Below are positions 22,009-31,646 of a DNA stretch of 39,010 nucleotides, in pieces. The position numbers and the translations under genes were made by a program. Origin of the DNA: an uncultured bacterium (lineage in GTDB: Bacteria; Patescibacteriota; Minisyncoccia; Phycocordibacterales; UBA9973); assembly GCA_903892035.1 (NCBI GenBank), contig CAITGV010000005.1, positions 1-39,010 on the forward strand, in the 5' to 3' direction. Under the pieces are notes generated by a model, which did not search any database, had not been told where the DNA came from, and saw nothing but the letters and a program-made list of their open reading frames with translations. Each line of letters begins with the position of its first letter. The stretch's first letter is position 1.

Positions 22009-23394
22009 CTATTTCTTAATTTGTATTTTGAGTTCTTTGAGAGTTTTTTCGGAAGCTTCGGAAGGAGCATTCATCATAAGGTCACGGCCTTCGCCAGTTT
22101 TTGGAAATGTAATAACTTCGCGAATATTTGGTTCATTTTGCATAAGCATTACTATACGGTCGATACCTTGAGCACAGCCTCCGTGCGGTGGAGCACCGTA
22201 TTCAAAAGCTGTAAGCATATGTCCAAAACGCGCTTCGATAAGCTCGGGACTTAAACCAAGCAATTCAAAAACTTTATTTTGCAATTCTCTTTGGTGAATA
22301 CGAATTGATCCTCCACCCAATTCATAACCATTCAAAACTATATCGTAAGCATTTGCACGAGCTGAAAGAGGATCAGTTTCTAGTAAATGTGCATCTTCTG
22401 CTTTTGGTGATGTAAATGGGTGATGCACCGCTTGCACTCCGCCCTCACTATCTTTCTCAAACATAGGAAAATCCACAATCCAACAAAATGCTAAAAGATT
22501 TGGATCATTTTTATCTTCACGAAGGTCAGGTTTATCATTGCCGTATTTTTCCATTGACTCTTTATATGTAAGTCTTGGAAAAGGCATTTGCTGAATTTTT
22601 TTCTCTGGATATACAGTTTGAACCATTTTTATAAACATATCTTCGGTATAAGAAATAACTTCTTCTTGTGTGGTAAAAGATATTTCATAGTCAAGTTGAG
22701 TAAATTCTGGTTGACGATCTCCGCGAGTATCTTCGTCACGCATACATTTTGCAATTTGAAAGTATTTTTCAAAACCAGCTACCATTGCTAATTGTTTAAA
22801 TTGTTGTGGTGACTGAGGAAGAACATAAAAATTTCCAGGGTAAATTCTAGAAGGTACGAGATATTCACGAGAACCTTCAGGAGTACCTTTTGTCATTATT
22901 GGAGTTTCAATATCTAGAAAACCATTTGCATGCATATGGTCACGGAAAAAAGTCACAATTTTATCACGCATACGAATATTGTTTTGCATACGAGTACTTC
23001 GAAGGTCTAGATAGCGATATTTCAAACGCAAATCCTCTGTTATTCCACTCGTATCTTCGTTAACAGTAAATGGTGGAGTCTCGGCTTTATTTAAAACTTC
23101 TATTAAATTTACAGAAAATTCAATATCACCATTTTGTTGATCTTTATTTATATTTTTTTCAGGACGTTTGTTTACTTTACCTTCCAAGCGCAGTACCCAT
23201 TCAGGACGCATTTCCTTTGCAAGCGTAATTGCCTCACTTGCAGGAAGTACTATACACTGCACTTTTCCAGTCATATCTCGAAAATCAAAAAAGACCATTT
23301 TTCCTTGGTCGCGACGAATATCCACCCAGCCAGCGAGAATTACACTCTCCCCTACTTTTCCGCTTAAATCTTTAATGTATGTTCTATTTATCAT
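22009..23394 (-). CDS. aspS: Aspartate--tRNA ligase, bacterial type, lacking the GAD insertion domain
   Basis: GWVDIRRD, LRLKYRYLDLR, LPQSPQQFKQ, RDEDTRGDRQPEFTQLD, HHPFT, GGGSIRIH, PPHGG..GIDR. Confidence 0.95.
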   Translation of the reverse strand: MINRTYIKDLSGKVGESVILAGWVDIRRDQGKMVFFDFRDMTGKVQCIVLPASEAITLAKEMRPEWVLRLEGKVNKRPEKNINKDQQNGDIEFSVNLIEVLNKAETPPFTVNEDTSGITEDLRLKYRYLDLRSTRMQNNIRMRDKIVTFFRDHMHANGFLDIETPIMTKGTPEGSREYLVPSRIYPGNFYVLPQSPQQFKQLAMVAGFEKYFQIAKCMRDEDTRGDRQPEFTQLDYEISFTTQEEVISYTEDMFIKMVQTVYPEKKIQQMPFPRLTYKESMEKYGNDKPDLREDKNDPNLLAFCWIVDFPMFEKDSEGGVQAVHHPFTSPKAEDAHLLETDPLSARANAYDIVLNGYELGGGSIRIHQRELQNKVFELLGLSPELIEARFGHMLTAFEYGAPPHGGCAQGIDRIVMLMQNEPNIREVITFPKTGEGRDLMMNAPSEASEKTLKELKIQIKK

Positions 23395-30266: not shown

Positions 30267-31646
30267 ATGAAAATAAAACTTTACAATACCCTGTCACGAA
30301 ATATTGAAGATTTTGTACCACAAGCTCCAGGTCATGTTTCTTTATATACCTGCGGGCCAACTGTTTATAATTATGCTCATATTGGCAATCTTCGTGCTTA
30401 TATTTTTAGTGATATTTTGAAACGAGTACTTTTATACAACGGTCTTGAGGTAAACCACATAATGAATTTGACTGACATAGATGATAAAACAATTCGTGAC
30501 TCTCAAAAAGCTGGGCAAACACTTAAAGAATTTACAGAATTTTACACCAAAGAATTTTACACTGACCGTGATGCGTTAAATATTTTGCCTGCAACAAAAT
30601 ATACAAAAGCCACAGATTATATAAAGGAAATGGTAACGATGATTGAAACTCTTTTAGAAAAAAATTATGCGTACAAAGAAAATGACGGAAGTGTATATTT
30701 TGATATTAAAAAATTTCCTGAATATGGAAAACTTTCTCACATAGATATGAATGAGCAAAAGGAAAATGCTTCAGGAAGAATAAAGAAAGATGAATATGAA
30801 AAAGAAAACGCTCAAGATTTTGCGCTCTGGAAAGCTTGGGATGAAAATGATGGTGATGTTTTTTGGGATCCCTCGACAACACTCGGGACAAGCACTTCTT
30901 TAAGTAAGGGGCGCCCAGGGTGGCACATTGAATGCTCTGCAATGAGTATTGCAAATTTAGGAGAGACGATAGACATCCACACAGGTGGTATAGACAATAT
31001 GTTTCCCCACCACGAAAATGAGATTGCTCAGTCCGAATGTGCCACTGGAAAAACTTTTGCTAACTATTTTATGCACAATGAACACCTTCTTGTGGATGGT
31101 AAAAAAATGTCAAAGTCTGCTGGAAATTTTTACACTTTACGTGACATTGTAGCAAAAGGTTACAACCCTATCGCTTTTCGTTACCTCGCTCTTCAAAATA
31201 GCTACCGTACACCACTAAACTTTACTTTTGATTCTCTTGATGGCGCACAATCTGCCTTAAAAAAAATGTATAATATTTTCCTAAAACTTGGCGCTGAATA
31301 TGGAAATATCAATAAGAATTATGAAGATGAATTTATAACTGCAATTAATAGTGATCTGGGAGTCTCTCAGGCCCTTGGTATTGCATGGAAAATGCTTGGA
31401 GATGAATCTGTATCAAAAGCTGACAAAAAGGCCACAATACTGAAATTTGATGAAGTTTTTGGGTTAGGACTCTTAAATGTTAATAAAATTGAAATTCCCG
31501 ACGAAATAATCAAACTTAAAGAAGAAAGAGAATACGCACGCTCACAAAAGAATTGGGCAAGCTCTGATGAAATTAGAATAATAATAGAAGAAAAAGGCTA
31601 CAAAGTTATAGATTCTGATTCTATTTCAACAATAGAAAAAATATAA
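30267..31646 (+). CDS. cysS: Cysteine--tRNA ligase
   Basis: [58 protein letters not shown]. Confidence 0.97.
30869..30893 (+). repeat. In-frame palindromic micro-insertion within cysS (encodes PSTTLGTS)
   Basis: tccc-tc-ga-caacac-tc-ggga bulged hairpin. There are 14 residues between W and GRPGWH versus the usual 6. Confidence 0.65.

Follow-up and report, generated by a model that had tools for sequence, protein, structure and literature searches.

Why would a bacterium with a small genome carry eight extra codons in the catalytic domain of its sole cysteinyl-tRNA synthetase (CysRS) gene? The question is raised by a stretch of 39,010 nucleotides (nt), hereafter the window, from an uncultured member of the Patescibacteriota, in which the gene cysS contains the exact inserted string CCCTCGACAACACTCGGGACAAGC at positions 30870-30893. 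The genome of the window (G000; 807 kb, 36% G+C, 5 contigs) is of the Patescibacteria type, and the window is C5:1-39010, with C1 and C2 denoting other contigs of the same genome. The comparisons described below indicate, with a probability that we put at about 85%, that the insert is a mobile repeat in solo form, one that is very small, non-autonomous and able to form a hairpin. The 24-nt unit is discrete, it belongs to a family, and it is inserted in frame in several essential genes. In addition, it recurs or has been lost at the same sites of cysS and ileS, and its nucleotides are conserved above the level that protein constraint imposes. The cysS copy is probably translated and roughly neutral for CysRS, and copies would be spread by a trans-acting structure-specific nuclease, for which a small stand-alone GIY-YIG nuclease is the best candidate, held at somewhat under even odds.

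The cysS open reading frame (ORF) matches the CysRS structures 8qhp, 1li5 and 3tqo of the PDB with E values of 1e-82 to 1e-90 (phmmer). Its product has 14 residues between a tryptophan and the GRPGWH motif, where 26 of 30 orthologs from the same family and order as G000 read W-x6-G(R/F/H)PGWH. The indel of eight residues is cleanly bounded, and the three solved structures have a gap at the same point, between S196 and P197 of the Escherichia coli enzyme. Thus, an initial annotation made from the sequence alone was right to describe a 24-nt in-frame insertion in the catalytic domain, with a loop of 14 residues in place of the normal six. Of the coordinates it proposed (30869-30893), the end holds, while the start is one base early, or else includes a T that pairs in the stem; the boundaries of the unit may in any case be shifted by 1 nt. 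The insertion point lies 9 residues upstream of W205 and 13 upstream of C209 (E. coli numbering from the 1li5 alignment), residues that we take to be a contact of the substrate cysteine and a zinc ligand, respectively. In the GRPGWH motif and around it, G215, P217, G218, W219, H220, E222 and C223 are invariant in the alignment. An AlphaFold2 model of the protein (20 orthologs) has a mean predicted local distance difference test score (pLDDT) of 90.4 and a predicted template-modelling score of 0.86; the block that holds the insert, with a pLDDT of 71, maps to a lower-confidence loop of this otherwise confident model. The features of the locus are collected in Table 1.

Table 1. Features of the cysS insert and of the HUH genes of the same genome. 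Positions without a prefix refer to the window; C1 and C2 are contigs of G000.
Feature	Position	Strand	Basis or remark
cysS (cysteinyl-tRNA synthetase, class I), host of the insert	30267..31646	+	ORF of 459 aa
Inserted unit CCCTCGAC-AACA-CTCGGG-ACAAGC, translated PSTTLGTS	30870..30893	+	8-codon indel vs 26/30 orthologs; family consensus
5' stem arm TCCC	30869..30872	+	pairs with GGGA at 30885-30888
Conserved loop TCGAC-AACA-CTC, spacer AACA variable	30873..30884	+	loop kept in 16 G000 copies with different stems
3' stem arm GGGA	30885..30888	+	complement of 30869-30872
3' tail CAAGC, part of family tail R-Y-A-A/G-R	30889..30893	+	tail consensus, 61 copies; fills up the 24 nt in nested insertions
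Native loop codons ACT TCT TTA AGT AAG (TSLSK)	30894..30908	+	ancestral W-x-TSLGK loop
GRPGWH active-site motif (E. coli G201-H206)	30909..30926	+	1li5 alignment numbering
Five RAYT-like HUH genes of G000	C2:21098-21730, C2:112848-113504, C1:400177-400917, C2:66992-67663, C1:447310-447987

The insert is not alone in its genome. The pattern CCYTCGAC-N3-6-CTCRGG has 10 matches in G000 and none in 20 genomes simulated with a Markov-2 model. Under a definition by the loop (TCGAC-N3-5-CTC) plus any complementary stem of at least 4 bp, the family has 16 copies in G000, against one for a reversed-loop control, and these copies carry nine different complementary stems, including TCCT/AGGA, CCCT/AGGG, TGGT/ACCA, CACT/AGTG, ATACT/AGTAT and ATAGT/ACTAT. 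Since the same loop occurs with varied complementary stems, the loop is conserved and the stem covaries. A similar trend is observed among 41 related genomes, where CCC goes with GGG and CCT with AGG in 60 of 62 copies, and in about 57 of 61 the bases that adjoin CCY on its 5' side and RGG on its 3' side are complementary. The stem is followed by a tail of 5-7 nt with the consensus R-Y-A-A/G-R (61 copies); when the spacer has 3 nt instead of 4, the tail is longer by one base, and thus the unit remains 24 nt. These observations support the assignment of the cysS insert to a real dispersed family of 24-nt units, each made up of a TCGAC-N3-5-CTC loop, a short stem that covaries and a tail, as the initial annotation had supposed from its likeness to small dispersed CCyTCGAC/CTCrGG repeats. 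Rfam scans, by gathering score and by E-value, returned no family at the element itself. The cysS copy pairs as T-CCC/GGG-A plus GA/TC, with a TC bulge in between, and on our reading the conserved TC/GA positions may form tandem G.A pairs in the antisense strand. Elsewhere in the window, TCGATAAGCTCGGGAC (22235-22250) resembles the 3' two-thirds of the element and has no CCY arm; the decay of a former copy or mere chance may account for it.

Among orthologs, the insert is patchy. The long CysRS loop is found in 4 of the 30 only (G000, G012, G020 and G003), all of which read W-D-PSTxLGxx-(T/A)(S/K)(L/I)(G/S)K. When the insert is masked, the CysRS tree places G000 and G012 as sisters, next to a pair without the insert, and G003 and G020 elsewhere. 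None of the bootstrap trees explains the distribution of the insert by one change only, and an approximately unbiased test rejects a single clade of the four carriers, which belong to four genera (p=0.0013). The conservation of the nucleotides adds to this. At 68 conserved fourfold codons outside the insert, the mean pairwise identity of the third positions among the four carriers is 0.26, with 3% identical in all four, while at the five fourfold codons inside it the identity is 0.80, CCC, CTC and GGG being invariant (permutation p<5e-5). The 4-nt spacer, by contrast with these arms, differs in each carrier (AACA, TTCT, TTGG and TCTG). As the synonymous sites of the insert are conserved while the rest of cysS is saturated, protein constraint cannot explain the nucleotide conservation. 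Hence, the long loop is not clade-wide, its hairpin arms are kept at synonymous sites, and copies exist beyond cysS, in each point the reverse of what the initial annotation had named as a refutation. Either repeated acquisition or homogenisation of the cysS copies or selection on the nucleotides as such would account for the pattern.

A second aminoacyl-tRNA synthetase gene gives a comparable picture. A 24-nt insert at one and the same site of ileS is present only in G000, G003 and G031, the last of which belongs to another family. These carriers read HY-[CCCTTCGACTTCGCTCAGGGTAAA]-CCCTTTGAA, and the closest relatives of G000 (73-75% identity) have plain HYPFE. The native targets resemble parts of the element, namely CCNTTYGA in ileS and ACN-TCN-CTCGG in cysS. 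In the latter, the native loop codons look like the 3' half of the element (AC-N4-CTCGG), and insert-free orthologs have GAA ACA TCT CTC GGT AAG at the loop. This suggests a preference for self-similar targets, and nested copies point the same way.

Other essential genes of G000 carry the unit as well. ruvC has gained exactly 24 nt, CCTTCGACTAGCTCAGGTCGAGGG, which form a perfect 8-bp hairpin, and topA has gained exactly 24 nt, CCTTCGACAAGCTCAGGGCAAAGC, between HDD and IP (site 2), as well as a net 21 nt at another position (site 1). Each of the three insertions is unique among 30 orthologs, the closest TopA being 85% identical to that of G000, and the ruvC and topA sites are unrelated, with flanks that show no similarity. 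ligA has a copy, likewise found in G000 only among 30 orthologs, with an 8-of-9-bp stem inside the zinc-finger loop; both this hairpin and that of ruvC are stronger than the cysS one. The inserts in cysS, topA (twice), ruvC and ileS measure 24 or 21 nt and contain no stop codons; being multiples of three without stops, they are by implication translated rather than removed. Precise insertion is also observed within the family, as G020 has five nested copies in which taking out a 24-nt inner unit gives back a canonical outer copy, for instance CCCTCGACTTCGCT[CCCTCGACAAGGCTCAGGGCAAGT]CGGGGTAAAC, where the brackets enclose the inner unit. With cysS, topA site 2, ruvC and the five nested cases, there are eight exact 24-nt insertions, the cysS insert thus having the length of the seven others. 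The proposal that this is a mobile micro-element tolerated in a protein loop is therefore supported by the in-frame copies in several essential genes.

Some side observations concern the same or similar genes. The topA genes of G019 (L032) and G011 (L035) have other GC-rich palindromic inserts at both loops that hold the element in G000, such as CCCCTCAGTCCCCTCCTCAGGCAGGAGGGG; the two TopA loops appear to be targeted by several repeat families. In-frame sense copies with other stems lie in three further ORFs of G000, one like superoxide dismutase (C1:208627, GSTTLTTGG), one like an aminotransferase (C1:456441, TSTSLSAG) and one of 361 aa (C5:87809, LSTVSQASA), all identified by the motif; these, too, may be insertions. 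The LigA of G003 (L090) is 46% identical to that of G000, while its TopA is 74% identical. Within this taxonomic family, ligA comes in two classes with differing zinc-finger regions, which may indicate gene replacement.

The orientation of the copies is strongly biased. Of the copies that lie in long ORFs, 31 have the sense and 5 the antisense orientation (p=1.3e-5), and the frames used are PST.. (18), xFD/xLD.. (8) and LRQ.. (5). About 10 of the 16 copies of G000 are within protein genes and 3-4 within RNA genes; the 10 in protein-coding genes are all sense, even in genes on the lagging strand (cysS, topA and ruvC). Relative to the replication fork, 6 copies of G000 are co-oriented and 10 are not. 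As the sense bias holds irrespective of the fork, it tracks transcription or translation. An IS608-like lagging-strand mechanism was rejected on these grounds, namely the 6:10 fork split and the 10 of 10 copies that are sense to their genes. Selection in favour of the least harmful peptide is the simplest reading of the bias. An insertion into a surface loop would add 8 residues to the protein and be tolerated, because 24 is a multiple of three and the sense frame encodes small polar residues (P-S-T-x-L/S-G).

Copies in RNA genes and leaders are found too. In the RNase P RNA gene of G000 (C1:66423-66774, - strand; L314:624-975), the P15-P17 arm is an inverted pair of copies, CCUUCAACAAGUUCAGG...CCCGAGCGAAGUCGAAGG. 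The 23S rRNA gene (C1:413200-414200; L317) is interrupted by a group I intron at L317:382-630, scored below the Rfam gathering threshold, and this intron holds a copy at C1:413687-413703. The leader of the L10 gene, rplJ (C1:404439-404574; L315:440-575), has an antisense copy at C1:404474-404492, and 1.1 kb downstream of it another copy, with an ATACT/AGTAT stem, lies at C1:405589. One nested copy sits between a transfer-messenger RNA gene and a GIY-YIG gene. Three observations on structured RNAs stand beside these: the RNase P RNA of G000 has a second hairpin, CCCGAGAGUAAUCGAGGG, identical to P18 and inserted near P3/P4; on a Candidatus Staskawiczbacteria contig (L185:339-431), an element core begins 2 nt past the 3' end of a tRNA gene; and at L236 the core abuts sequence resembling a tRNA T-arm and acceptor end.

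The same observations could be explained if the hairpin were a functional nucleic-acid signal under selection within genes, for instance a protein binding site or a structural mark in RNA or DNA, an explanation that overlaps partly with a mobile origin. This would account for arms kept at synonymous sites in four genera where other synonymous sites are saturated, for a loop that is nearly invariant across phyla, for a strong sense bias that tracks transcription and not replication, and for copies that are part of structured RNAs (the RNase P P15-17 arm, the L10 leader and the group I intron). Nevertheless, the closest relatives lack the cysS, topA, ruvC and ileS inserts with no visible compensation, 227 of 401 genomes of the phylum have no copy at all, nested insertions are typical of selfish spread, and tolerance of the peptide explains the bias in sense and frame equally well. 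A functional signal as the whole explanation is thus unlikely, though it is the alternative that survives best.

The family extends well beyond the host genome. Further copies, for which the initial annotation had suggested a search of the genome, were found in G000 and also in 16 of its 41 relatives. In an even sample of the phylum, 174 of 401 genomes have the motif, with a maximum of 76 copies in a single genome, against about 25 control hits in total. The exact 17-mer core CCTTCGACAAGCTCAGG occurs in contigs of Bacteroidota, Cyanobacteria (a Leptolyngbyaceae contig being one carrier), Proteobacteria, Chloroflexota, Actinomycetota, Nitrospirota, Planctomycetota, Acidobacteriota, Verrucomicrobiota and several groups of the candidate phyla radiation, and in at least 120 viral contigs. 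Raw 17-mer counts in 596 Gb are not evidence by themselves, as about 70 chance matches are expected by our own calculation. The flanks, however, are strongly non-random: of 87 copies, 62 have C at position -1 and 60 have G at +1, GCGAACGG often occupies +1 to +8, the two stem arms are complementary, and partner copies in inverted orientation are found nearby. It is these flanks, and not the count, that support the presence of the core in other phyla. A literature search by peptide string, nucleotide string and topic found no publication that describes the core.

Which enzyme could spread such a unit? The initial annotation had suggested a search for a linked nuclease gene of the HUH or GIY-YIG type. 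Of the two, the HUH link is not supported, while small GIY-YIG genes show an association in counts and, in some genomes, are bracketed by the element. In a comparison of 18 high-copy with 18 zero-copy genomes, made without correction for kinship, matches to PF01541 (GIY-YIG) number 7.06 per genome in the former and 2.28 in the latter (Mann-Whitney U test, p=1.2e-5). One match per genome should be UvrC, and a single match is all that 8 of the 18 zero-copy genomes have. The additional ORFs, recognised by hidden Markov model, encode 80-130 aa and follow the pattern MYYVYIL..LY.G.T. An element lies within 250 nt of a GIY-YIG ORF in 5 of 18 high-copy loci, against none for the control pattern and an estimated expectation of about 0.6-0.7 loci.

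Three of these loci share a geometry. In G410, G350 and G349, an antisense copy lies 22-127 nt upstream of the GIY-YIG start, and a sense copy overlaps the stop codon or follows it closely. With TGTCATCCT-GAGCTTGTCGA-AGGATGA and its complement, the two ends of the locus are genuine terminal inverted repeats. In G410 and G349, the sense copy encodes the last residues of the nuclease and its stop (..RPSTGSG* and ..RSFDYRSG*). Together with the metagenome locus L499, these make up the genes bracketed by inverted copies. One-sided copies are found at giy1 of G000 (C1:160488-160706), where an exact antisense core precedes the start by 80 nt, at G031 and G020, loci picked by the motif alone in which a copy stands immediately upstream of a small GIY-YIG gene, and at G093, L501, L503, L504 and L512. 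Metagenome loci picked by the protein (L498-L577) show inverted matches of at least 12 nt between the upstream and stop regions in 27 of 72 usable cases, against 1 of 72 for the control. Those with inverted repeats, whose genes encode 80-100 aa, share TGTCATYCTGAG.. heads and have lineage-specific, differing loops. On this evidence, small GIY-YIG loci with terminal inverted repeats have the appearance of a family of very small elements, as yet undescribed, that encode a nuclease.

It is conceivable, though somewhat less probable than the involvement of a GIY-YIG enzyme as such, that the 24-nt units are solo ends of undescribed elements of about 0.4 kb, in which a stand-alone gene for an 80-100-aa GIY-YIG protein lies between inverted hairpins. 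The bracketed gene would then be the autonomous form of 0.4 kb and the solo hairpins its derivatives. The right-hand hairpin would supply the last codons and stop of the gene, and different nuclease lineages would bear different hairpin loops. Copying of the solo hairpins would place them in structured RNAs and in the loops of essential proteins, in Patescibacteria and beyond, and self-similar target sites would be hit repeatedly.

Several points weigh against a nuclease-spread mobile repeat and have to be set beside the evidence in its favour. The evidence for mobility consists of sequence comparisons. The patchiness at shared sites could come from one old gain followed by precise losses, or from allele transfer, without re-insertion, and all four cysS carriers have an Asp directly before the insert. 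The bulged hairpin noticed in the extra codons at the outset is real but weak, with minimum free energies of -1.5 (DNA), -4.7 (sense RNA) and -7.3 (antisense RNA) kcal/mol, which makes it thermodynamically marginal. As for the enzyme, the association of counts ignores phylogeny, and only 1 of the 3 small GIY-YIG genes of G000 has a copy nearby, giy2 and giy3 having none. The TCGAC loop is in its canonical places at only 5 of 80 protein-picked loci, all with at least 61% identity to the query. Moreover, of 181 core copies in viral contigs and in other phyla, not one has a GIY-YIG ORF within about 4 kb, in a search whose positive control worked; consequently, the GIY-YIG link is not general for the exact core. 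It is a well-motivated candidate within Patescibacteria, neither demonstrated nor general.

The other enzyme to be weighed is an HUH (Y1) transposase like the repetitive extragenic palindrome (REP)-associated tyrosine transposases (RAYT), which would mobilise the element as in REP/RAYT systems. G000 has five diverged Y1_Tnp ORFs with intact HUH motifs (Table 1), and the counts of motif and Y1 genes correlate over 41 relatives (rho 0.43, p=0.0045). Nevertheless, a different private hairpin goes with each of the five genes, located shortly before the start, in frame within the gene and/or right behind the stop, for instance TTTGGGAGC-tta-GCTCCCAAA, which occurs three times around C2:112848-113504, and the TCGAC..CTC hairpin is at none of the five. 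Y1 genes are present in as many of the 18 high-copy as of the 18 zero-copy genomes (11 of 18 in both; means 1.9 and 1.06; Mann-Whitney U test, p=0.27), and they are absent from G410, with 76 copies, and from the closed genome G347, with 25. The Y1 loci of high-copy genomes show no consistent arrangement of the element, and the replication-strand bias of the IS200/IS605 kind is absent. With the private hairpins, the null case-control comparison and the lack of an arrangement at Y1 loci, mobilisation by these enzymes was rejected and can be regarded as largely refuted.

Least credible of all is an ordinary lineage-specific loop expansion, such as a tandem duplication of native TSLGK codons with a chance likeness to the repeat, which is disfavoured even though insert and native loop resemble an imperfect tandem repeat (STLLGK-STSLGK in G003) and the native ACN TCN CTC GGN resembles the 3' half of the element, for the 14-base match to the family has an essentially zero chance expectation, four lineages that are not sisters agree in the arms at synonymous sites that are otherwise saturated, Ser is encoded by TCG in the insert and by AGC or ACN-TCN in the native unit, and the same 24-nt unit occurs at unrelated ruvC and topA sites with dissimilar flanks.

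A mobile hairpin of this kind has parallels. Rickettsia palindromic elements, reportedly described by Ogata and colleagues in 2000, are said to be selfish palindromic repeats that lie in frame in essential genes, including those of aminoacyl-tRNA synthetases, to be read as extra surface peptide segments, and to occur in non-coding DNA and RNA genes too. They are about 100-150 bp long, comprise the families RPE-1 to RPE-8 and are confined to Rickettsia. The analogy with them drawn by the initial annotation holds for behaviour, as the 24-nt palindromic repeat is likewise in frame in cysS, topA (twice), ruvC and ileS. It fails for size and sequence, since the unit is 4-6 times smaller, has no sequence relation to them and is distributed across Patescibacteria, with its core in many phyla. 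GC clusters of yeast mitochondria, which are short GC-rich palindromic mobile inserts in AT-rich genomes, coding regions included, are a further parallel; these are organellar, and some are skipped by the ribosome. In contrast, the 24-nt element keeps the frame, which implies translation.

REP/RAYT systems are said to have been treated by Nunvar in 2010 and Ton-Hoang in 2012, among others. REP/REPIN elements, which go with RAYT (TnpA-REP) transposases, are short imperfect hairpin repeats (Bertels and Rainey 2011, PMC3116915). The element described here is similarly a short imperfect palindrome with many copies (16 in G000, up to 76 per genome), conserved and covarying parts and occasional inverted doublets (the RNase P arm), and its candidate autonomous form would have a nuclease gene between inverted copies. 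Unlike REP/REPIN elements, it is mostly intragenic (about 10 of 16 copies of G000 being in protein genes) and most conserved in the loop rather than the stem. No GTAG or CGTC head is present, the 5' flanks of 61 and 87 copies showing only the pairing base at -1, and a cognate RAYT with the same hairpin was not found in the host genome, the candidate enzyme being GIY-YIG rather than HUH.

Small dispersed repeats (SDR) of heterocyst-forming cyanobacteria, reportedly described by Elhai and colleagues in 2008, are said to measure 21-27 nt. According to the passages on them in two articles, they have hairpin potential, insert precisely into other repeats, SDR5 within HIP1 for instance, and have no known transposase (PMC4390886, PMC3116915). 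To the extent covered by those passages, the unit studied here resembles them in its very small size, hairpin potential and nesting, with five of its eight exact 24-nt insertions being nested. It differs from them in taxa and probably in sequence, and no fixed HIP1-like target is seen. Thus, the 24-nt repeat joins a known class of in-frame palindromic repeats, while no published description of the sequence family itself was found.

If this reading is true, 24 nt would be among the smallest known mobile DNA units, one that, in bacteria whose genomes are minimal, repeatedly edits CysRS, isoleucyl-tRNA synthetase, topoisomerase I, RuvC, DNA ligase and RNase P RNA and that would give a steady supply of protein-loop variation. 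It would also explain the strings PSTSSG, PELVEG, LSLSKG and FDKLR, which, we assume, recur in annotations of hypothetical proteins across phyla. On the practical side, inserts of this kind can cause errors in alignments, in phylogenies and in the gene calling of metagenome-assembled genomes. The literature searched held no answer to how micro-repeats that lack a transposase spread, and recurrence at self-similar sites, together with a candidate GIY-YIG partner, offers a testable handle on this question. Should the 0.4-kb GIY-YIG elements be real, they would be the GIY-YIG counterpart of the REP/RAYT 'REPtrons'.

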